Shown: one piece after another, positions 3,049-34,597 of the stretch
Numbering within the stretch: position 1 is the first letter of the stretch
Layout of the letters: each line of letters starts with the position of its first letter
Origin: an uncultured Bacteroidales bacterium
GTDB taxonomy: Bacteria; Bacteroidota; Bacteroidia; Bacteroidales; CAZZDX01
Assembly: GCA_964653185.1 (NCBI GenBank)
Contig: CAZZDX010000002.1
Span: 1-34,597, forward strand
Reading direction: 5' to 3'
Length of the DNA: 34,597 bases
Made by a program: the position numbers and the translations under genes
Notes under the pieces: generated by a model
The model's database searches: none
Told to the model about the DNA's origin: nothing
The model's input: the letters and a program-made list of their open reading frames with translations, nothing else

Positions 3049-3051
3049 CAA

Positions 3052-3079
3052 CCCAACAGGTGCTACGCGACCTGTCGGG
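3052..3079 (-). repeat. REP hairpin (type II), right member of the inverted pair
   Basis: cccaacaggtgctacgcgacctgtcggg is the reverse complement of 2662-2689, 28/28. Confidence 0.85.
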
Positions 3080-3102
3080 TGGTTGGGTCAGTGAAAAAAA
3101 AA

Positions 3103-3290
3103 TTAATTTCAAAATTTGTAACTGTTCAGTTTATCAGAAATATTTACCTAGTTGATATATTATTTACGAGGTTAATAATTTGTTGCTGGTAGTAGTAAGA
3201 GACACAAAATTTTGTGTCTCTACATTTTTCGATAAATACAGTTGAAAATTCCGATAAAAGTCGGAAAATGTTCCATTGACGAAATATTAG
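3103..3290. repeat. Direct repeat copy B, right of the RAYT remnant
   Basis: Matches copy A (see 2294-2529). The centre carries an intact 12-bp palindrome agagacacaaaa/ttttgtgtctct (3199-3222) that is disrupted in copy A. Confidence 0.8.
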
Positions 3291-5500: not shown

Positions 5501-5586
5501 ATCAGGCATTCGTTCCGATAAATGTCCCGATAAATGCGGGATTTACAACGAAATTTGCAGTCAGTAGCCGAACTTGACCGCCTGAT
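5501..5586. repeat. tcaggc...gcctga REP-like element carrying a nested insertion
   Basis: atcaggcattcgt (5501-5513) and tcagtagccgaacttgaccgcctgat (5561-5586) are the two halves of the 2367-2402 / 32486-32521 element. They are split by about 47 nt containing ccgataaat twice, a word also found in repeat copies A and B. Confidence 0.65.
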
Positions 5587-6942: not shown

Positions 6943-7093
6943 AAAAATTATTTAATCATTTTTTTTATTTTTATTGTTGTCTGTTCATAAAGTCGCCGAT
7001 AAACCGTTAAAATGGTTATTTTATATTATTAAATATCATTAATATTTTTTTTATTCGTTAAACGCTGACAGGTTTACTCAACTTTTATTTCAT

Positions 7094-7140
7094 AACTCAT
7101 AATTCATAATTCCTTTTACTTTTGCATTTTGCATTTAAAT
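7094..7140. repeat. Short heptamer array using the same words as the dcw arrays
   Basis: aactcat aattcat aattcct ... tttgcat tttgcat. The first words are identical to 27345-27365. Confidence 0.6.
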
Positions 7141-9872: not shown

Positions 9873-10020
9873 AAAAATTGAAATAATTGAAATAATTGCA
9901 AAGATTTTTTTAAAAGTCCTTATCCATAATTTTTCCAATTATTTCAATTATTTAATCTTTTCAACAAAGTATTAATATATCAGTTCATCTATTATTCAGA
10001 AATAATTTATCTATACTTAA
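9873..10020. repeat. Composite VNTR element, family X, copy 1
   Basis: Layout is [attgaaata-type 9-mers] - aaagatttttttaaaagtccttatccataat - [ttccaatta/tttcaatta 9-mers] - cttttcaacaaagtattaatatatcagttcatctattattcagaaataatttatctatactta. Its order is colinear with 23946-24103 and partly with 26572-26646. Confidence 0.7.
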
Positions 10021-14977: not shown

Positions 14978-14995
14978 ATGGTTAAAACATATAGT

Positions 14996-15262
14996 TTTTT
15001 GTAAGCGTTCACAGTTTAGAATTTCATAACTATTAATTGACCTAATTTCTAATTGACCTAATTGTCCTAAAAAATGACCAATACCCAATGCAAAATGGCT
15101 AAAATAATGACCAATGCCCCAATTTAGACATTGGAAATTAGGACTTGTTTAGGACAATTAGGTCAATTAGAAATTTATATTATAGGCAACAATGTTGGTA
15201 AAGTTTTTTTCTTAAGCGCCTAAATCTAATTATAAAAAATAGAGTGTGAACAGTTACAATTT
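14996..15262. mobile_element. MITE-like non-autonomous element (about 265 bp) with terminal and long internal inverted repeats
   Basis: Termini are gtaagcgttcaca (15001-15013) and tgtgaacagttac (15245-15257), 11/13 complementary. A perfect 27-nt internal inverted repeat pairs aatttctaattgacctaattgtcctaa (15044-15070) with 15149-15175. The left 57 nt recur at 34541-34597 with 3 mismatches. No ORF. Confidence 0.65.
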
Positions 15263-15306
15263 TTTTAATCAAGCAATTGTCTGATTAATTATTACCTAAA
15301 ATTAAT

Positions 15307-20065: not shown

Positions 20066-20198
20066 AAAATTATTTTTTTAATAAATAGAATATACAAATT
20101 TTTAAAAATTTTATTAACATTATTTTCTTGCAAATTGTTAATTAAAAAATGTTTGCAAAAATTTCCGTATCATATATTATACGCCTAATGCAGACGAA

Positions 20199-20337
20199 AT
20201 TTTAAAGTTTTTATTTTACAATTTTCAATTTTCAGTTTTTAATTTACAATTTAACGTTCCGAGTTCCGAGTTCAAAGTTCAAAGTTCAAAATTCATAATC
20301 TGTAATCCGTAATCTATAATTTTCAAGTATCCAGTTT
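20199..20337. repeat. Register-locked heptamer mosaic array (about 20 units), ftsA-ftsZ spacer
   Basis: Plus-strand units in one register: attttaa agttttt attttac aattttc aattttc agttttt aatttac aatttaa cgttccg agttccg agttcaa x3 aattcat aatctgt aatccgt aatctat aattttc aagtatc. Confidence 0.85.
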
Positions 20338-21600
20338 TTAATTCACATCATCGTCAAACCATTTTTTAATTATTTCTATTACTCCTCCTGATTTATTTTT
20401 TTTACGACCTGGCTTATTCAAATTTTTTTTTTGTTCTTCTATATAATCAAAACCTTTAATGATAAGTCCTATTCCTGTTGAGAACATTGGATTTATAACT
20501 TTTTCCGGCACATTATTAGCTAAGTGTTCGCTTGGATATCCTATACGGGTATCCATACCTGTAACAAATTCGGTTAGTTGAGCAATATGTTTTAGTTGTG
20601 CTCCGCCTCCTGTTAATACTATTCCTGCGATAAGTTTTTTTTCATATCCTGAATTTTTTATTTCATAATATATACATTCTATAATTTCTTCTGCCCTTGC
20701 CTGTATAATGTTTGAAAGATTTTTAAGAGATATTTCTTTTGGTGTGCGTCCTCTTAAACCTGGTATTGATACGATTTCCTCATCACTATTTTCTTTTGCC
20801 AGGGCAGAGCCAAATTTAATTTTCAATGCTTCTGCCTGAGTTTTGATAATGGAACATCCTTCTTTAATATCTTCAGTAATTACATTACCGCCAAAAGGTA
20901 TAACAGCAGTATGACGTATTATTCCATCCTGAAATATTGCTACATCTGTTGTTCCGCCGCCTATATCAACAAGGACAACACCTGCATCTTTTTCTTCTTT
21001 GCTTAGCACGGCTTCTGCGGAAGCAATAGGTTCAAGTATCATCCCTGTCATTTCTAATCCTGCTCTTTTGATACATCTTTCAATATTTTTTGCTGCGGCA
21101 ACTTTTCCAACGATTATATGAAAATTTGCCTCCAAACTAATTCCTGCCATACCTATAATACCTGTAGGGTCGCCTGTAAATTGTTGTTTATCAACAATAT
21201 ATTCCTGAGGTATTACATCAATTATTTTTTCTCCGGGCTGCATAACCAACTTAAACATATTTTCTCTTAAACTAGTAATATCCTGCTGGGAAATTTCATC
21301 ATCAAGAGTATCTCTTATAATACCTCCACGATGTTGTAAGCTCTTTATATGTTGACCGGCAATACCAACATATACTTCTCCAATACTTACTTCTGCTTCT
21401 TGTTCTACATCTGAAATAACTCTTTTTATTGAGTCAACGGTTTTTTCAATATTAGAGACCACGCCTCGTATAACTCCTACAGATTCTGTTTTGGATAATC
21501 CGAGAATTTCTATCTTACCATATTGATTTTTTTCTCCTACTATGGCAGCTATTTTTGTTGTGCCAATGTCAAGGCTGACTATAATTTCCGATTTTTTCAT
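20338..21600 (-). CDS. ftsA: Cell division protein FtsA
   Basis: 420 aa actin-fold protein with LDIGTTKIAAIVGE and VDIGGGTTDVAIF. Confidence 0.95.
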   Translation of the reverse strand: MKKSEIIVSLDIGTTKIAAIVGEKNQYGKIEILGLSKTESVGVIRGVVSNIEKTVDSIKRVISDVEQEAEVSIGEVYVGIAGQHIKSLQHRGGIIRDTLDDEISQQDITSLRENMFKLVMQPGEKIIDVIPQEYIVDKQQFTGDPTGIIGMAGISLEANFHIIVGKVAAAKNIERCIKRAGLEMTGMILEPIASAEAVLSKEEKDAGVVLVDIGGGTTDVAIFQDGIIRHTAVIPFGGNVITEDIKEGCSIIKTQAEALKIKFGSALAKENSDEEIVSIPGLRGRTPKEISLKNLSNIIQARAEEIIECIYYEIKNSGYEKKLIAGIVLTGGGAQLKHIAQLTEFVTGMDTRIGYPSEHLANNVPEKVINPMFSTGIGLIIKGFDYIEEQKKNLNKPGRKKNKSGGVIEIIKKWFDDDVN

Positions 21601-21605
21601 TATAT

Positions 21606-22397
21606 TTAAATTTTAGAACAGATTACCTGATTTTTATATTTCAAATTTATAGATTTATATTTATTGCGAGATATATTATTAAACTCTTGTTTATAAAAGG
21701 CAAAAAGATTTTCAAATTTTTCTTTCATATTGTCAATATCTCCAAAAATTACTATATGATTGCCAATATAAGGTATAAGTTCAATATCGCTTGATTTATT
21801 AATATATATCTGAGATATTTGTGCTTTCCAGAATTCAGATGAACGTGTATATTTTGCCAAAGAATAAAGTTTGTATATATCAGATTGCTTAATCAAAGTG
21901 CTATCTTTTTTATTATAACATTTTTTATCTGACAAAGACGTATAATATTGTTCTTTTATGTTTCCACTTGCTATAACAACTCTTGCCGTATATTTATTAT
22001 TTAATGGCATTTTGTGTCCGTAATTATCAATATAAAAACTTTCGCCTCTGTTATTTATAATTCTTATTATTGGTTTTCGTTGTGTAACATCAATTTTTAC
22101 TGTGCCATTAATATTTGAATAGGCATCTGCCTTATCTATATATGGATTTTGGCTAATTTTTTTTTCAATTTGTTTAATATTTATATCAGATAAATATTTA
22201 TTTATTATATTTCCCCGCGTTTGATAAATTAGTGATTTTATATCCTTTTCTGTAACAAATTTAGCATTTTGTGAATCAATATATATACTAATTTTTTTAC
22301 ACTTTATATTACTATGTTCTTTACAAACAAACGCCAACAGAACAAATAAAGCTATTGTAAGTATTGACCATAGTAATATGTTAATTATTTTTTTCAT
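21606..22397 (-). CDS. ftsQ: Cell division protein FtsQ
   Basis: 263 aa with a single N-terminal TM helix (ILLWSILTIALFVLLAFV). It sits between murC and ftsA, 5 nt before the ftsA start. Confidence 0.8.
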   Translation of the reverse strand: MKKIINILLWSILTIALFVLLAFVCKEHSNIKCKKISIYIDSQNAKFVTEKDIKSLIYQTRGNIINKYLSDINIKQIEKKISQNPYIDKADAYSNINGTVKIDVTQRKPIIRIINNRGESFYIDNYGHKMPLNNKYTARVVIASGNIKEQYYTSLSDKKCYNKKDSTLIKQSDIYKLYSLAKYTRSSEFWKAQISQIYINKSSDIELIPYIGNHIVIFGDIDNMKEKFENLFAFYKQEFNNISRNKYKSINLKYKNQVICSKI

Positions 22398-22411
22398 TAA
22401 TATATTTTAAC

Positions 22412-22547
22412 AAGACAAAGGCACAAAGTTCAATCGTTTGTCGTTTGTCGTTTTAAGTTTCAAGTCCCAAGTTCAAAGTTCAAAACTCACATTTCAACAA
22501 GTTCAATGTAAATAATTCATAATTCATAATTTTTTAGCATCCAGTTT
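22412..22547. repeat. Heptamer mosaic array, murC-ftsQ spacer
   Basis: Reads caaaggcacaaagttcaa tcgtttg tcgtttg tcgtttt aagtttc aagtccc aagttca aagttca ... aattcat aattcat. It shares 21-nt and 14-nt blocks with 28692-28754. Confidence 0.8.
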
Positions 22548-23927
22548 CTAATTAATTTTCAATTTATTTATCAACAATTGTTTAATAGGTTCTACAAATT
22601 GGTCAATATCACCGGCACCAAGAGTTAATAATACTTCAATATTTTGTTTACTTAGTTTATTTAAGAGTTTTGTTTTTTTACAAATACATTTATTTTTAAT
22701 TTTAATTTTATCAAGGAGCATTTTGGAGTTAATTCCCGTAATAGGCAATTCGCGTGCAGGATATATTTCTAAAAGAATAAGTTGGTCAAGCATATTTAAG
22801 TTTTTTACGAATTCATCAGCAAAGTCGTGTGTTCTTGAATAAAGATGAGGTTGAAATACGGCTGTAATTTTTTTATTCGGGTATAATTTTTTAACAGCCA
22901 TGATGCAAGCTTTTAGTTCTGCGGGATGGTGTGCATAATCGTCAATATAAACAATTTTTTCAGTATTTATTATAAAGTCAAATCGCCTTTCAACGCCGGT
23001 ATAAGATTCAAGGGCTTTTTTAATTTTTATTTTGTCTAAACCCATTGATAATGCTACTGCTGAGGCGGCTACTGCATTTTCTATGTTGTGTTTTCCCTGT
23101 ATTTTAAAATTTATATTTTTAATAATATCATTATTCCAATTTAAGTCAAAAATATTTTTGTCCGCATGAAGAGAATTGCTCATTCTAATATTTGATGCCC
23201 AAAAGTCGCTTTTAGTATTGCATGAATAAGTAATTTTTTTTACATTTAGTTTATCAGATATATTAAGATTTTTGTTTATAATAAGTTTCCCTTTGTTTTT
23301 AATTTGTTTAGCAAACAGCAAAAAAGATTGCTGCATACATTTTTTTGAGCCGTATATATCAAGATGGTCAGGGTCCATATAAGTTATAACAGCAATATCA
23401 GGATGTAGTGCAAGGAAAGATTTATCATATTCATCAGCTTCAACAACAATAACATCGCTATTTTGGGATAGAACAAGATTAGAATTGTAATTTTTGGTTA
23501 TTCCTCCTATAAATGCTGTTACTTTAATGTTACATTGTTTTAAGATATGTGCTATTAGTGCTGTGATGCTTGTTTTTCCGTGTGTGCCTGCTACTGCGAC
23601 AGTAAACATTTTTTGAGTAAGTATTCCTAATACTTCGGAGCGTTTTTTTATGTTATATTTATTTTTCAAAAAATATTTATATTCTTTATTCGTTTTAGGT
23701 ATTGCCGGAGTATAAATGACAATATCAATATTTTCGGGTAATAAGTTTATATTCTCTTTAAAGTGAACAGGTATTTTTTCTTTTATAAGTTGCTGAGTTA
23801 AAATAGTATTTGTTTTATCATAGCCCATAACATCAACATTTTTTGCTTTAAAATATCTTGCTAAGGCGCTCATTCCTATGCCACCTATTCCCAGAAAATA
23901 AATTCTATGTAAGTTGTTTATATTCAA
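22548..23927 (-). CDS. murC: UDP-N-acetylmuramate--L-alanine ligase
   Basis: 459 aa. Contains YFLGIGGIGMSALA, the P-loop VAGTHGKTS, and DDYAHHP. The only possible start is TTG at 23927-23925, because a stop lies 3 codons upstream and no ATG precedes the GIGG motif. Confidence 0.93.
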   Translation of the reverse strand: MNINNLHRIYFLGIGGIGMSALARYFKAKNVDVMGYDKTNTILTQQLIKEKIPVHFKENINLLPENIDIVIYTPAIPKTNKEYKYFLKNKYNIKKRSEVLGILTQKMFTVAVAGTHGKTSITALIAHILKQCNIKVTAFIGGITKNYNSNLVLSQNSDVIVVEADEYDKSFLALHPDIAVITYMDPDHLDIYGSKKCMQQSFLLFAKQIKNKGKLIINKNLNISDKLNVKKITYSCNTKSDFWASNIRMSNSLHADKNIFDLNWNNDIIKNINFKIQGKHNIENAVAASAVALSMGLDKIKIKKALESYTGVERRFDFIINTEKIVYIDDYAHHPAELKACIMAVKKLYPNKKITAVFQPHLYSRTHDFADEFVKNLNMLDQLILLEIYPARELPITGINSKMLLDKIKIKNKCICKKTKLLNKLSKQNIEVLLTLGAGDIDQFVEPIKQLLINKLKIN

Positions 23928-23945
23928 TCTATATTATGTTCATTA

Positions 23946-24103
23946 ATAATTGTAATGATTGTAAAGATTTTTTTAAAGTCCTTATCCATAATCTTTCCAA
24001 TCTTTTCAATCTTTCCAATCTTTTCAATCTTTTCAATCTTTTCAACAAAGTGTTAATATCTCAGTTCATATATCATTATTCATAAATGATTTATCTATAC
24101 TTA
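23946..24103. repeat. Composite VNTR element, family X, copy 2 (six 9-mers), overlapping the murG 3' end
   Basis: attgtaatg attgtaaag - atttttttaaagtccttatccataat - ctttccaat/cttttcaat x6 (23993-24046) - aaagtgttaatatctcagttcatatatcattattcataaatgatttatctatactta. It is colinear with 9873-10020. Confidence 0.8.
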
Positions 24104-25217
24104 TGTACATGCTATTTACCATATTTATTATTTCTTCAGCTATTAAGTCAGCAGAATTTTTAAAAGCCATTTTTGAAATATTATTTTCCAGTTCTGTTTG
24201 TTGTCTTTGATTATTTAACAAGTCAAGGACTGTTTCCTTTAATTTTTCTTTTGCCTGATTATCTTTAATTATAATAGCTGCATTTTTATTTACCAGAGCC
24301 ATGGCATTTTTTGTTTGATGGTCTTCTGCTACATTAGGCGAAGGAATAAGTATAGCTGGTTTACCCAATGCACATAGTTCTGATACAGCAATTGCTCCTG
24401 CTCTTGACACAATAATATCAGCACAGGCATAAGCATAATCCATTTTTGTAATAAAGTCATAAACTTTTATAATGTTATCATCAATATTTTGAGCAGCTTG
24501 TTTTGCAAGAGCAAAATAAGATTTTCCTGTTTGCCATAATATTTGGATATTATTATGAACAAAAGGTCTTAAATTTTTATGAATACTTTCATTAATTGTT
24601 TTAGCGCCTAAGCTTCCACCAATTACGAGCAATGTTTTTTTGTGTTTTGACAACTTAAAATATTCAAGGGCTTTTTCTTTTTTATGTTCAAAGTTTGAGA
24701 ATTCCTGTCTGATAGGATTTCCTGTAAGAATAATTTTTGATTTTGGAAAAAATTTATCCATATTATCATAAGCAACACATATTTTATTTACATGTTTGGC
24801 AAGTAATTTATTTGTGATACCCGGAAAAGAATTTTGTTCCTGTATAAGTGTTGGTATTTTTTTGTTTGTAGCAATTTTAAGTATAGGACCGCTGGCATAG
24901 CCTCCTGTTCCGACGACAGCATCCGGTTTAAAATTTTTTATTATTTTTTTGGCTTTAATCATACTTAATATCACTTTAAAAGGGAAAGACAGATTTTTTA
25001 ATGATAATCGTCTTTGTAATCCACTAATCCACAGACCTTTAATATTATATCCGGCAGCAGGCACTTTATCCATTTCCATTTTATTTTTTGCACCTACAAA
25101 AAGTATTTCAATATTATCAATCTTTTTTTTTAGAGCATTTGCTATAGCAATGGCAGGGAATATATGACCTCCTGAGCCACCTCCACTAATGATTATTTTA
25201 AATTTATTTTGTTTCAT
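24066..25217 (-). CDS. murG: Undecaprenyldiphospho-muramoylpentapeptide beta-N-acetylglucosaminyltransferase
   Basis: 383 aa. N-terminal G-loop ISGGGSGGHIFPAIAIA, plus LVIGGSLGA and SRAGA. About the last 12 codons lie in the family-X repeat. Confidence 0.93.
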   Translation of the reverse strand: MKQNKFKIIISGGGSGGHIFPAIAIANALKKKIDNIEILFVGAKNKMEMDKVPAAGYNIKGLWISGLQRRLSLKNLSFPFKVILSMIKAKKIIKNFKPDAVVGTGGYASGPILKIATNKKIPTLIQEQNSFPGITNKLLAKHVNKICVAYDNMDKFFPKSKIILTGNPIRQEFSNFEHKKEKALEYFKLSKHKKTLLVIGGSLGAKTINESIHKNLRPFVHNNIQILWQTGKSYFALAKQAAQNIDDNIIKVYDFITKMDYAYACADIIVSRAGAIAVSELCALGKPAILIPSPNVAEDHQTKNAMALVNKNAAIIIKDNQAKEKLKETVLDLLNNQRQQTELENNISKMAFKNSADLIAEEIINMVNSMYISIDKSFMNNDI

Positions 25218-25272
25218 CAGTTTATATTTTTGTAACTATCTCGCTTTCAGTTACTTCGGGCTTTTGGCTTTT

Positions 25273-25363
25273 AGTTTCTATTTTCCAATTTCCAGTTTCC
25301 AGCTCCAAGTTTCAAGTTCCAAGTTCAAGGTTCAAGGTTCATAATCCGTAATTCATAATTTAA
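25273..25363. repeat. Heptamer mosaic array (13 units), ftsW-murG spacer
   Basis: Units: agtttct attttcc aatttcc agtttcc agctcca agtttca agttcca agttcaa ggttcaa ggttcat aatccgt aattcat aatttaa. Confidence 0.8.
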
Positions 25364-25406
25364 TAACTATCTTTGTTCATAAAAACTTCATCAGTAACAG
25401 CTGGGT

Positions 25407-26537
25407 TTAATTTTTTTCAGTTTCTTTACTAACGCTTAGAACTATACCAACAGTAATGCTCATAAACAATATTGAAGTTCCGCCCATACTTACAAAAGGC
25501 AATGTTTGTCCTGTAACAGGCAATATATTAACAGCTACAGCCATATTTATAAAAGCTTGGAATACTAAACTAAAGCAGCATCCTATTGTTAAAAATGAGC
25601 CAAAATATCTTGGAATTTTTGTTGCTATTTTTATTCCTCTAAAAAGCAAAATAAGATACATTAATATTAATACAATTCCGCCAGTAAGTCCATATTCTTC
25701 AATTATTATAGCAAAGATAAAGTCAGAATAAGAATGTGGTAAGAAATTTCTTTGAGTACTTTTTCCCGGAGATTTACCAAGCAATCCGCCTGTGGCAATA
25801 GCTATTTTTGCTTGTTCTACTTGATAATCTTCTTTTTCATTTTTATCTCTAAAATTTTCTACACGAGTTTCCCATGTCTTTAAACGTCCTTGTTTTCCTT
25901 CAGATAAATTATTTAATATCACTATAAATAAAAAAAATGATACAGCACCAATAGTTAATAAAGATAATATATATTTAATATTAATTCTTCCAATAAACAT
26001 AATTATAATGCAGGTAACAAACAGGACAGCAGATGTTGAAAAATTTGCAGGCAGTATTAATCCACATATAATTAATATAGGAAGCATTATTGTTAAAAAG
26101 GCAGATTTAAAATTTATAATTTGTCCTTGTTTTTTAGATATTACTCTTGACAGATACATTATAAGAGCAAGTTTAGCAAAATCTGATGTCTGAAAACTAA
26201 TATTAACACCTGGTAAAGTTAACCAACGGCTTGCATCATTAAGATTAGTTCCAATAGCAAAGGTTAATATAAGAAGAGGTATAGCTATAATAAGTGCTAC
26301 TTGTGATATTCGTGAATAATAAGTATATTTAATCAGATGGGCTAAATAGATAAAAACAAATCCTAATAATATAATAATAAGTTGTCTGATGAGATAAAAC
26401 TCTGTATTTCCTCCCTGTTTTTTATATGCTAAAGAGCCGGTAGAGGTATATACTGCTAATATAGAAAAGACAGACAATATGATTACTACTGTCCATATAA
26501 CTTTATCGCCTCTTAATTTATTTAATATATTTAGCAT
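25407..26537 (-). CDS. ftsW: SEDS-family peptidoglycan polymerase FtsW
   Basis: 376 aa polytopic membrane protein with LPHSYSDFIFA and LPFVSMGGTSIL motifs. It occupies the dcw position between murD and murG. Confidence 0.9.
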   Translation of the reverse strand: MLNILNKLRGDKVIWTVVIILSVFSILAVYTSTGSLAYKKQGGNTEFYLIRQLIIILLGFVFIYLAHLIKYTYYSRISQVALIIAIPLLILTFAIGTNLNDASRWLTLPGVNISFQTSDFAKLALIMYLSRVISKKQGQIINFKSAFLTIMLPILIICGLILPANFSTSAVLFVTCIIIMFIGRINIKYILSLLTIGAVSFFLFIVILNNLSEGKQGRLKTWETRVENFRDKNEKEDYQVEQAKIAIATGGLLGKSPGKSTQRNFLPHSYSDFIFAIIIEEYGLTGGIVLILMYLILLFRGIKIATKIPRYFGSFLTIGCCFSLVFQAFINMAVAVNILPVTGQTLPFVSMGGTSILFMSITVGIVLSVSKETEKN

Positions 26538-26571
26538 TCTGAATTTATTTATAAAATATTACTCTTTAGAT

Positions 26572-26646
26572 ATTGTAATAATTGTAATGATTAAAAAAAT
26601 TATTTTTTTACAAGTCCTTCTATCCATAAATCTTTTCAATCTTTTT
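26572..26646. repeat. Family X element, copy 3 (short)
   Basis: attgtaata attgtaatg ... tttttttacaagtccttctatccataaatcttttcaatc. It has the same order of blocks as copies 1 and 2. Confidence 0.6.
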
Positions 26647-27195
26647 TTACAGATTTCTAACTACTTGTTTAAATTGTCGTCCACGGTCTTCATAATCTTT
26701 AAATAAATTAAAACTTGCACATGCAGGTGATAGCAGAACTACATCTCCTGATTTTCCAAGATAATAAGCAAAGCTGACAACTTCAGCCATTGATTTTGTA
26801 TTAGCTATAAATTTTATTTTATCAGCAAAAGCATTATGTAATTTTCTGTTATCAATTCCAATACAAACTATTGCTTTCACTTTTTCTTTTACAACATCTT
26901 TGAGCATAAAATAATCAGTATTTTTATCTTGTCCGCCAGCAATCCATATTACGGGTTTTGTCATATTTTTAAGAGCAAACCATGTTGAGTTTATATTTGT
27001 TGATTTTGAATCATTCACAAACTCAATGCCATGAACATTTGTAATAAATTCCAGTTTATGTTCAATATTTTTAAAATCAGAAAGACATTCTTTAATAATT
27101 TGTTTTCTGATATTAAATATTTTAGAAGGTATTGCTTCTGCCATATTTCTATTTATATTCTGTTTTCCTTGCAATGCTAAACTTTCTATTGACAT
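26647..27195 (-). CDS. murD: MurD C-terminal domain only (5'-truncated murD; possible pseudogene or split gene)
   Basis: The 182-aa ORF aligns by eye to the last ~40% of UDP-N-acetylmuramoylalanine--D-glutamate ligase: ...EHKLEF...NDSKSTNINST...IAGGQDKNTDY...LLSPACASFNLFKDYEDRGRQF. It has no P-loop and no N-terminal Rossmann-like domain. A stop lies 4 codons upstream of the ATG, and the remaining 200 bp up to mraY is heptamer repeat. Confidence 0.85.
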   Translation of the reverse strand: MSIESLALQGKQNINRNMAEAIPSKIFNIRKQIIKECLSDFKNIEHKLEFITNVHGIEFVNDSKSTNINSTWFALKNMTKPVIWIAGGQDKNTDYFMLKDVVKEKVKAIVCIGIDNRKLHNAFADKIKFIANTKSMAEVVSFAYYLGKSGDVVLLSPACASFNLFKDYEDRGRQFKQVVRNL

Positions 27196-27225
27196 TATTT
27201 TTAATTAATTTTAATTTCCATTTAT

Positions 27226-27393
27226 AGTTCCAAGTTCCAAGTTTCAAGTTCCAAGTTTCAAGTTCCAAGTTTTAAGTTTCAAGTTCAAAGTTTCAAGTTC
27301 AAAGCACACAACTCACAACTCACAACTCACAACTCACAACTCACAACTCATAATTCATAATTCATAATTTCAAGTTCCAAGTTTCTAATAATT
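27226..27393. repeat. Register-locked heptamer mosaic array (24 units), mraY-murD spacer
   Basis: 11 units of agtt[c/t][c/t/a]a type, then agcacac, aactcac x5, aactcat, aattcat x2, aatttca, agttcca, agtttct, aataatt. All are in one 7-bp register. Confidence 0.9.
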
Positions 27394-27396
27394 TTC

Positions 27397-28653
27397 TTAT
27401 CTGATTTTCAATGTTATAATAGTTAAGACAGCGAGAAATATTCCAATAATCATAAATCTATTTACTATTTTAGGTTCCGGGCATCCTTTTTTTTGATAAT
27501 GATGATGTAAAGGAGCCATGAGATAGAATCTTTTTCCTTGTCCATTTTTTTTCTTGGTATATTTAAAATAGCTCACTTGAATTATTACAGACAAGCTTTC
27601 TATAAGAAAGGTTCCGCATAGCACAGGCAATAATAGTTCTTTGCGTATCATTATTGCAAATACAGCTATGATACCGCCTATAGCCAAACTTCCTGTATCT
27701 CCCATAAACACCTGAGCCGGATAAGAATTATACCACATAAAGCCGATACATGCTCCTACAAAAGCACTGACAAATACAGTTAGTTCTCCTATATTAGGTA
27801 TATACATTATATTAAGATAATCAGCAAATACAAGATTGCCTGATACCCAAGCCAGTATTCCTAATGTGGCACCGATAATAGCAGAAGAGCTAGTGGCTAA
27901 TCCGTCCAAGCCGTCAGTAAGATTAACACTGTTTGATACAGCACATACTATTAATATAACTATAGGTATAAATATTAGCCATGTAAACCTTTTATAATCA
28001 TTACCGAGCCATGATAACAGGACAGAATAATCAAATTCATTATTTTTAATAAAAGGTATAGTTGTTTTTACTGATTTTACCGGCTCTTTAAATAATGCTT
28101 TAAAAGATTTATCATTATTATTTATGTTTTTTTTTGTCTGTTCCTGATAAGTAATTTTTGATTCAATATGTTTTTCTTTAATGACGATTGAATCATTAAA
28201 ATACATAGTTATACCTATTATTAATCCAAGTCCTATTTGCCCTAATATTTTAAATTTAGCTGCCAAGCCCTTTTTATCTTTTTTAAATACTTTAATATAG
28301 TCGTCAATGAACCCAACTATTCCAAGCCAAACAGTTGAGATAATTATTAAAATTATATATATATTATCCAGTTTTGTAAAAAGCAAAGCAGGTATTAAAA
28401 TAGCTCCGAGTATAATTAGTCCACCCATTGTAGGAGTGCCTTGTTTTTCTTTTTGTCCTTCTAGTCCTAAATCCCTGACAGTTTCTCCTACTTGTTTTCT
28501 TTTTAAGAAATTAATTAATTTTTTTCCGAATAAAATTGTAATAACTAATGAAGTTATAACAGAGAGAGCGGCACGGAATGATATATATTGAAACATTCCT
28601 GCACCCGGGAAGTTAAGTTCCGTGTCTAAATAATTAAATAAGTAATAGAACAT
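27397..28653 (-). CDS. mraY: Phospho-N-acetylmuramoyl-pentapeptide-transferase
   Basis: 418 aa polytopic membrane protein with [21 protein letters not shown] and APLHHHY. Confidence 0.95.
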
Positions 28654-28656
28654 ATT

Positions 28657-28783
28657 AATTATGAATTATGAATTATGAATTATAAAGTTTCAAGTTCAAT
28701 CGTTTGTCGTTTATCGTTTCAAGTTTCAAGTTTCAAAGTCCAAAGGCACAAAGTACAAAGTTCAATATTCAAAATTTGTAATT
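28657..28783. repeat. Heptamer mosaic array (18 units), murE-mraY spacer
   Basis: aattatg x3 aattata aagtttc aagttca atcgttt gtcgttt atcgttt caagttt x2 caaagtc caaaggc acaaagt x2 tcaatat tcaaaat ttgtaat. The first block is the inverse of the cataatt words elsewhere. Confidence 0.85.
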
Positions 28784-32467: not shown

Positions 32468-32485
32468 TATGTTTATACCGTTGGA

Positions 32486-32521
32486 TCAGGCATTCGTCAG
32501 TAGCCGAACATGATTGCCTGA
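32486..32521. repeat. tcaggc...gcctga REP-like element (long form) in the ftsL-ftsI spacer
   Basis: tcaggcattcgtcagtagccgaacatgattgcctga matches 2367-2402 except for 2 positions. The 7-bp terminal arms are tcaggca / tgcctga. Confidence 0.7.
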
Positions 32522-32558
32522 CGGCATTTATATTTTCGTAATTAGTTCATTATTAATT

Positions 32559-32607
32559 GATTACGGATTACAAATTTTGAATTTCAAGTATTTTAAGCAT
32601 TTTGAAT
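32559..32607. repeat. Weak heptamer array in inverted orientation
   Basis: gattacg gattaca aattttg aatttca agtattt taagcat tttgaat. The stretch gattacggattaca is the reverse complement of tgtaatccgtaatc at 20301-20314. Confidence 0.5.
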
Positions 32608-34536: not shown

Positions 34537-34597
34537 ATTTTTGTAACCGTTCACAGTTTAAAATTTCATAACTGTTAATTGACCTAATTTCTAATTG
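34537..34597. mobile_element. Left end of a second copy of the MITE-like element (cut by the window edge)
   Basis: ttgtaaccgttcacagtttaaaatttcataactgttaattgacctaatttctaattg versus 14999-15055 gives 54/57 identical by eye. Confidence 0.6.

Follow-up and report, generated by a model that had tools for sequence, protein, structure and literature searches.

Tandem repeats with a unit of 7 bp have been described in several groups of bacteria. In cyanobacteria, short tandemly repeated repetitive sequences (STRRs) are tandem 7-bp intergenic repeats whose function is unestablished and for which roles in transcript stability or translational coupling have been suggested (PMC2670836). TAACTGA repeats and mixed heptamer assemblages were reported by MacGregor in 2015 for Beggiatoaceae, Cyanobacteria and five Bacteroidetes (i.e., Gramella, Aequorivita, Elizabethkingia, Flexibacter and Paludibacter), with close relatives that lack them and with indels in 7-nt steps between closely related Cyanothece strains (PMC4679880). 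According to the survey of Mrazek et al. (2007), as it is cited in the same source, heptanucleotides are the most abundant class of long simple-sequence repeats (LSSRs) in most prokaryotic genomes surveyed, and polymerase slippage has been proposed as their origin (PMC4679880). Here we describe mosaic arrays of 7-bp units in five intergenic spacers of the division and cell wall (dcw) operon of an uncultured Bacteroidales bacterium, located on a 34.6 kb stretch of DNA (contig CAZZDX010000002.1, positions 1 to 34,597; this whole stretch is hereafter called the window). An earlier note on this DNA, made from the sequence alone, had linked the arrays to no described element class; as heptanucleotide simple-sequence repeats, including mixed heptamers of Bacteroidetes, were already described in the two sources above, that claim does not hold, and the arrays represent a known class rather than a new one.

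The window has a G+C content of 28.8%, and its minus strand encodes a complete dcw cluster in the order mraZ, rsmH, ftsL, ftsI, murE, mraY, a short murD, ftsW, murG, murC, ftsQ, ftsA and ftsZ; the gene assignments made in the earlier note are correct. The FtsL_2 and PorP/SprF families, together with relatives that are Bacteroidales metagenome-assembled genomes, identify the host as an uncultured, Bacteroidales-like organism; in a GTDB genome scan the nearest species-level genomes showed 60-69% FtsW identity, and no relative exceeded 69%. Heptamer arrays are present at five of the 12 dcw junctions, each between annotated genes, i.e., in non-coding DNA. The impression that almost every dcw spacer is filled in this way therefore holds for five spacers and fails for the operon as a whole.

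To quantify periodicity, we compared the lag-7 match fraction of each spacer against 1000 dinucleotide-preserving shuffles and used Tandem Repeats Finder (TRF) as a second detector. The five spacers showed lag-7 match fractions of 0.52-0.74, as compared to approx. 0.3 in the shuffles (z = 6.4, 6.6, 7.0, 12.2 and 10.7), and none of the 1000 shuffles reached the observed value. TRF reported period-7 rows in all five spacers, covering the same blocks as the lag-7 analysis. When 56-nt windows were scanned along the 34.6 kb, matches above 70% were found only at lag 7, at its multiple 14 and in one 9-mer array. The specific 7-nt periodicity that had been noticed by inspection is thus confirmed by the shuffled controls and by TRF. 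The period-7 arrays measure 110-180 bp each; they share with heptanucleotide LSSRs the tandem 7-nt units, a length beyond that expected by chance from composition and a non-coding location, as well as instability of unit number, which is seen in a sister species (a 21-nt indel between strains, and differing array lengths; see below).

The units are variants of a loose consensus, approx. xTGAAYT (e.g., TTGAACT, TGGAACT, TGAAACT, ATGAATT, GTGAGTT and ACGGATT), and all five arrays are read here on the minus strand. The ftsA/ftsZ array (20198..20337) follows directly on the ftsA stop codon, comprises approx. 20 units in a single register (mRNA-sense words TAGATTA, CGGATTA, TGAACTT, GGAACTC and AAAATTG) and ends 132 nt before the ftsZ start. 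The murC/ftsQ array (22412..22547) consists of (ATTATGA)2, (TTGAACT)n and (AAACGAC)3, with a phase shift of 2-3 nt mid-array, and ends 14 nt before the ftsQ start. The ftsW/murG array (25255..25365) has approx. 16 units in a single register (words ATGAATT, ACGGATT, GAACCTT, GAACTTG, AAACTGG and AAGCCAA) and ends 37 nt before murG. The longest array, between mraY and murD (27219..27396; approx. 24 units in a single register), is built of the blocks (ACTTGRA)2 (ATTATGA)3 (GTTGTGA)6 (ACTTKRA)12, ends in GGAACTAT and stops 23 nt ahead of the start codon of the short murD. The murE/mraY array (28654..28783; approx. 18 units) slips by 1 nt at least once and abuts the mraY start; the block at its end, (AATTCAT)3-4, corresponds to the ATGAATT block of other arrays in reverse complement and contains no AUG. 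A register that never slips, as originally perceived, therefore describes three of the arrays (ftsA/ftsZ, ftsW/murG and mraY/murD) and not the other two.

The arrays share sequence as well as period. The murC/ftsQ and murE/mraY arrays have in common an 84-nt stretch with 71% identity, in register (repeat family D7), the longest exact string common to any two arrays being 22 nt, and three arrays open with a motif of approx. 20 nt, AAAATTA(A/T)TTAGAAACT(T)GGA, at or just after the stop codon. Small copies of array words also occur outside the arrays, as had been pointed out, i.e., 3.4 units of ATTATGA / GTTATGA (sense) between yigZ and rpsF, away from the dcw cluster (7089..7112, minus strand), and GTAATCC GTAATCA in the ftsL/ftsI spacer (32559..32572, listed on the minus strand), which is inverted relative to the ACGGATT word of the arrays. 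Another approx. 13.5 kb of sequence of the window organism contains one further array with the word (AACAATC)n; this array (contig L216, 5722-5846, outside the window) is 125 nt long and directly precedes the start codon of a gene for an aldehyde:ferredoxin oxidoreductase.

Comparison with a sister species provided the principal new evidence. This species (contigs L206-L210) was detected by a MraY protein search only, and not by the GTDB scan; its MraY is 92% identical to that of the window, and no match of the search fell between 88% and 77%. Arrays of the same word family are present in the sister species at four of the five junctions (murE/mraY, mraY/murD, murC/ftsQ and ftsA/ftsZ). Pairwise alignments showed 95-100% identity in the flanks and block-wise differences in unit content in the interiors, with lengths in the window and the sister species, respectively, of 130 and 105 nt for murE/mraY, 201 and 95 nt for mraY/murD, 150 and 62 nt for murC/ftsQ, and 272 and 238 nt for ftsA/ftsZ. 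At the fifth junction, ftsW/murG, the spacers of the two species are unrelated and similar in length (189 vs 191 nt). The sister murE/mraY array is without the AAACGAY and AATTCAT blocks. Among strains of the sister species (three assemblies), the ftsA/ftsZ array differs by a 21-nt insertion, GAACATT GAACTTT GAACATA, which corresponds to exactly three units. Moreover, two arrays of the window that lie 6.2 kb apart, murC/ftsQ and murE/mraY, both contain a 27-nt block, AAACGAYAAACGACAAACGATTGAACTT, which neither of the orthologous sister arrays has; a single origin of this block followed by copying from array to array is the simplest account.

Overall, these data favor, with a probability that we put at roughly 0.7, the interpretation of the arrays as slippage-born, recombining heptanucleotide simple-sequence repeats (i.e., compound microsatellites that resemble STRRs) which are tolerated and have no fixed function. 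The "slippage-prone DNA" that was one of the hypotheses of the earlier note is supported by the 21-nt strain polymorphism and by the differences in unit number between sister species with conserved flanks. Under this interpretation, a short seed in a formerly tight junction would grow and shrink by replication slippage, one 7-nt unit per step; point mutations would create variant units, and later slippage would amplify these variants locally, giving a block-wise mosaic. The shared vocabulary would result from block exchange between arrays a few kb apart, through ectopic recombination, gene conversion or template switching. As unit-wise slippage keeps the register automatically, selection for phase is not needed. 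The arrays are most likely transcribed within the dcw mRNA. They are probably tolerated there in that ribosomes of Bacteroidota, which do without Shine-Dalgarno pairing, need an A-rich, AUG-poor and weakly structured region near the start codon, and such an A-rich, AUG-poor proximal leader remains intact at four of the five junctions, with an AUG-free array block abutting the start at mraY. Tolerance would also be helped by stops in all three sense frames and by the arrays adding neither a terminator (none was found on the minus strand in any dcw spacer) nor a promoter box. The net effect would be a loss of tight coupling between neighboring genes, with no fixed sequence-specific role.

The contrast between the array-bearing spacers and the usually tight dcw junctions, which had been drawn from the window alone, proved right in a wider comparison. 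Among 80 Bacteroidota dcw loci, the median junction is 4 nt for murE/mraY, -8 nt for ftsW/murG, -1 nt for murC/ftsQ and 86 nt for ftsA/ftsZ, and the same detector found period-7 arrays in only nine of the 80 loci, with a maximum of 187 bp as compared to 556 bp in the window. The words in these other arrays differ (GGGATAC, CATAATT, CAGTTCG, GAAATCT, GAAAGGT and others), and their composition is C-rich or G-rich without a rule. A relative with 76% MraY identity (L211; GCA_021158345.1) has dcw junctions of 0-36 nt and no arrays; in this relative, MurG and MurC are encoded as one 816-aa fusion protein (L211 13767-16217). The closest relatives in GTDB carry inverted, hairpin-forming GCAGGAG and GGTATAA arrays at dcw junctions (L001 2169-2338 and 4125-4263; L003 6240-6479), and at the dcw junctions of these same relatives a 21-nt (3 x 7) periodic repeat is found between ftsI and murE.

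A metagenome scan with (AACTTKR)x2.7 returned at least 120 contigs with G+C contents from 32% to 70%, in which the arrays frequently form inverted pairs that directly adjoin a start codon; these words are thus not confined to the lineage of the window. Contigs L086, L089, L109, L154, L177 and others, with up to 70% G+C, carry GGAACTT and GAACTTT arrays that typically form an inverted pair and a long hairpin, with GAACTAT(G) as the end of the sense arm, directly at a start codon or shortly ahead of it; the mraY/murD array of the window has a similar end, GGAACTAT. Orientation relative to neighboring genes showed no clear preference for AACTTKR arrays in 120 of these contigs (25 co-directional sense vs 18 antisense arrays), as judged with a crude ORF (open reading frame) caller whose gene calls are unreliable.

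With STRRs, the window arrays share the tandem 7-bp units, the intergenic location (including within operons), the occurrence of several arrays per genome and a shared vocabulary. STRRs are, however, found in heterocystous cyanobacteria and often form hairpins through inverted arrays, whereas the present host belongs to the Bacteroidota, the words are of the xTGAAYT type, and four of the five arrays are direct only and unstructured. The words of STRR1-3 also differ from those of the window. The assemblages described by MacGregor are similar in their mixed heptamer words, intergenic location, sense-strand stops, the tendency of contigs to break in arrays, hosts of the same phylum, and close relatives in which the same gene order has short, repeat-free spacers. 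The heptamer TAACTGA was not seen in the window arrays by eye, without a pattern search being run, and occurs as one isolated unit in the sister ftsA/ftsZ array (L206). The Beggiatoaceae repeats have 2-6 copies and abut start codons, whereas the arrays here have 16-24 units and begin 0-40 nt after the upstream stop; four of the five adjoin that stop and terminate 14-132 nt short of the start codon, the murE/mraY array being the only one to reach it. As both host and words differ, the arrays are not strict members of either the STRR or the TAACTGA family, and a literature search with exact array strings retrieved unrelated papers only. LSSRs, as far as they are characterized in the survey cited above, are likewise non-coding, longer than expected by chance and attributed to slippage; unlike these pure repeats, the window arrays are compound, imperfect and concentrated in one essential operon. 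Phase-variable contingency loci with heptanucleotide repeats (e.g., the hmw1A promoter of Haemophilus influenzae; PMC8262952) resemble the arrays in that the number of 7-nt units varies between strains; these repeats are, however, pure and switch the expression of genes for surface or host-interaction functions, in whose promoters or reading frames they are located, whereas the window arrays are mosaic, lie between housekeeping genes and have no Bacteroidota promoter box in or beside them.

We also assessed whether the arrays might be artefacts of short-read metagenome assembly. Contig breaks in arrays are common (contigs L082, L083 and L085 begin inside an array), and the same was noted by MacGregor for Elizabethkingia (PMC4679880). 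Five assemblies (from ENA, JGI and Logan) nevertheless agree with the window, including its arrays, over stretches of 2.3-19.2 kb that show 0-3 mismatches and are free of gaps; as the samples may belong to one project, these assemblies indicate reproducibility and not independent populations. The mosaic structure, with a longest shared exact string of 22 nt that is far below read length or assembly k, makes read-length k-mers unique and collapse unlikely, and a different species from other samples has orthologous arrays. Assembly artefacts are accordingly an unlikely source of the arrays, and we give this explanation next to no weight.

The shared opening motif and the 84-nt stretch of family D7 could also be read as traces of a small, non-autonomous mobile element, copies of which entered several junctions and later diversified, and the genome does contain other dispersed repeats (families D4, D5, D8 and D10). 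The arrays, however, lack terminal inverted repeats and target-site duplications and are not of constant length, and the opening motif follows the same heptamer register as the rest of the array. Differences between the sister species consist of internal gains and losses of units between fixed flanks, not of presence or absence of whole elements. The palindromes or terminal inverted repeats and the defined ends that characterize repetitive extragenic palindromes, bacterial interspersed mosaic elements and miniature inverted-repeat transposable elements (REP/BIME or MITE) are absent from the arrays, four of which show no significant fold, and present in other elements of the window (D8 and I1). 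An origin by insertion therefore appears highly improbable.

The composition of the transcripts bears on another explanation, i.e., that the arrays function at the RNA level and set dcw expression, either as selected tracts that are unstructured, stop-rich, C-poor and untranslated or as a platform for a single-strand RNA-binding protein. Such spacers might give a clean end to upstream translation, avoid Rho loading and offer landing sites to ribosomes that initiate without Shine-Dalgarno pairing; the platform would offer multiple sites to a protein with a footprint of approx. 7 nt, e.g., a cold-shock-domain protein. All five arrays have the same sense orientation, their mRNA-sense strand contains 8-14% C, as expected from the G-poor plus strand and C-poor mRNA tracts noticed earlier, G exceeds C in four of the five, and each of the three frames contains 2-6 stop codons. 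RNA folding revealed no significant structure in four arrays (z = +1.6, -0.8, -0.4 and -0.6 vs shuffles). The RNA of the mraY/murD array, by contrast, folds into a long, register-ambiguous, imperfect hairpin with G-U pairs, in which the (GUUGUGA)n block pairs with (ACUUGRA)n blocks (minimum free energy -33.4 kcal/mol, z = -3.3). The description of the tracts as non-self-complementary thus applies to four arrays and not to the largest one, which weakens a role that depends on lack of structure.

Precedents for an RNA-level role come from Bacillus subtilis, where CspB binds heptamer repeats with one protein per heptamer, and from the repeat-binding regulators proposed for TAACTGA repeats (both PMC4679880), as well as from Nostoc, in which heptamer repeats changed reporter expression (bioRxiv 10.1101/2022.06.06.494920). 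Translation initiation in Bacteroidetes depends on low structure, an A at position -3 and local depletion of AUG (PMC6847099). In the five array-flanked genes, the 40 nt that lead up to the start codon contain 28-55% A and 0-1 AUG, and the inverted, AUG-free block beside the mraY start fits these rules, as a single case that is only suggestive. An "unstructured initiation spacer", as had been hypothesized, may therefore describe at best a permissive condition, as four arrays stop well short of the start codon (by the distances given above) and the sister arrays are shorter or, at ftsW/murG, absent. Furthermore, words, unit numbers and even presence vary between the sister species at one and the same junction, unit number varies among strains, relatives manage without arrays, and the dcw arrays of other Bacteroidota follow no compositional rule. 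Overall, we consider a selected role at the RNA level unlikely. Less probable still is a more specific version, in which the arrays would form an RNA platform of variable length that binds one single-strand-binding protein with a footprint of approx. 7 nt (with a cold-shock domain or RRM) per unit and shields the spacers from Rho and RNases, unit number acting as a rheostat of division proteins.

At the DNA level, the arrays might provide phased sites for a regulator or nucleoid protein, or internal promoters for ftsZ, ftsQ, murG, murD and mraY. TTTG recurs every 7 nt in several blocks, three units correspond to 21 bp, which would be approx. two helical turns, and heptad TTTTGAT repeats are regulator binding sites in the ctxAB promoter of Vibrio cholerae (bioRxiv 10.1101/2021.05.14.444153). 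As the words change between blocks and between species, there is no constant recognition sequence, and the phased protein-binding array put forward in the earlier note is disfavoured by these changing words and unit numbers. The housekeeping promoter of Bacteroidota consists of a -7 box, TAnnTTTG, and a -33 TTTG located approx. 19-21 nt upstream. A regex scan of the minus strand found no TAnnTTTG box in any array or dcw spacer. Complete -33/-7 pairs occur upstream of rpsF (6919), upstream of a mutase gene (5634) and at 2284, which indicates that the motif is informative in this genome, and the idea of TTTG-rich internal promoters is thus not supported. A sigma-70 promoter scan was also tried and set aside, as its 131 matches only marginally exceeded the shuffled expectation (106 ± 11) and the sigma-70 model does not apply to Bacteroidota. 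A DNA-level function of either kind seems very unlikely.

Several observations weigh against tolerated, slippage-born repeats as the full explanation. No variation in unit number was found among the five assemblies of the window organism, which possibly represent one population. Five arrays lie in one operon, as compared to two in approx. 32 kb sequenced elsewhere in this genome; such clustering is not expected under pure neutrality and calls for local copying or a tolerant context as an additional assumption. The uniform orientation of the arrays relative to transcription and the C-poor transcripts could reflect selection at the RNA level, and the persistence of the spacers in two species, across an essential operon, may point to some benefit. 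Slippage, co-transcription and the effect on expression are inferred, and so is neutrality.

The murD gene next to the longest array (26647-27195, minus strand) encodes only 182 aa, which match positions 263-440 of the 441-position MurD model, i.e., the C-terminal domain without the ATP-binding part. At least 10 other Bacteroidota (L001, L003, L010, L012, L016, L019, L022, L023, L026 and L027) and the sister species (L206) have the same short murD, placed likewise between mraY and ftsW; complete genomes, e.g., OY820914.1, are among those with the short gene, and other relatives, including L004 and L211, have a full murD of approx. 450 aa. No N-terminal half of MurD was found within 10 kb on either side of the short gene. 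A search with the N-terminal 271 residues of the full-length MurD of L004 gave, among the 120 matches listed, essentially all full-length MurD and a few shorter ones (partial or on short contigs). We considered whether the longest array, or a collapse in assembly, had replaced the N-terminal 270 residues of MurD; this was rejected, as the same short gene is present at 10 or more array-free Bacteroidota loci, and the heptamer array thus did not cause the truncation.

Further repeats of other kinds are present in and near the operon. The long murG/murC and murD/ftsW spacers hold a different, hairpin-type element built of 9-mers, of which the window contains three minus-strand copies (9873-9996, 23944-24060 and 26576-26650), located downstream of murF, murG and the short murD, respectively. 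Inverted 9-mer arrays (GAAAAGATT or GAAATAATT vs complements) surround a nearly invariant loop of approx. 20 nt, TATGGATAAGGACTT(T)TAAAAA; the arms vary between copies yet stay complementary (murF copy, z = -4.3). The loop was also considered as a small peptide (an ORF of 21-22 aa), and this candidate was dropped in favor of a hairpin with complementary arms. Gene callers place the murC start at an ATG at 23873 (441 aa), by which the conserved nucleotide-binding motif YFLGIGGIG is lost; a start at the TTG at 23927 (459 aa) regains the motif, so that the murG/murC spacer measures 138 nt and not 192 nt. In the sister species, this spacer contains a gene for a 129-aa protein of family PF05635 (23S rRNA intervening-sequence protein) with 9-mer repeats on both sides (L206 14941-15330; also L207-L209), and the window organism has another gene of the PF05635 family, which immediately precedes mraZ (L214 3530-3892).

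The window contains three copies of a dispersed 38-nt palindrome (ATCAGGCATTCGTCAGTAGCCGAAC.TGA.TGCCTGAC; 2366-2403, 5549-5586 and 32485-32522), one of which takes up part of the ftsL/ftsI spacer. A 60-nt repeat with 95% identity is found upstream of mraZ (34538-34597) and in the 14978-15306 spacer (14996-15055); the latter copy overlaps a 47-nt inverted repeat of 9-mers (TAATTGACC; arms 15044-15090 and 15129-15175), and this site resembles a small mobile element. The sequence that precedes mraZ varies among strains of the sister species by a 49-nt indel made up of similar AATT-rich words. Two segments of approx. 80 nt are duplicated 760-810 nt apart with 94-98% identity (2286-2529 and 3095-3290) and flank a pair of 33-nt inverted repeats (2658-2690 and 3051-3083). 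The whole window gave no match in searches with Rfam at gathering thresholds and for tRNAs.

The function, if any, of bacterial heptamer arrays has been open since the description of STRRs, and this locus offers a clean comparative case, in which arrays have separated the genes of an essential and normally tight operon in two sister species and conserved flanks allow orthologous alignment. Its value lies in the combination of a whole-unit polymorphism between strains with evidence for block copying, so that the comparison of sister species and strains shows arrays in the midst of change. In practical terms, heptamer arrays break short-read contigs and can mislead gene callers. If the arrays did serve as an RNA platform, changes in unit number, such as the 21-nt polymorphism upstream of the sister ftsZ, would constitute a heritable rheostat of division-protein stoichiometry. 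Overall, the case shows a dcw operon of the Bacteroidota that tolerates untranslated spacers of 100-270 nt, which is consistent with initiation of translation that is independent of Shine-Dalgarno pairing.

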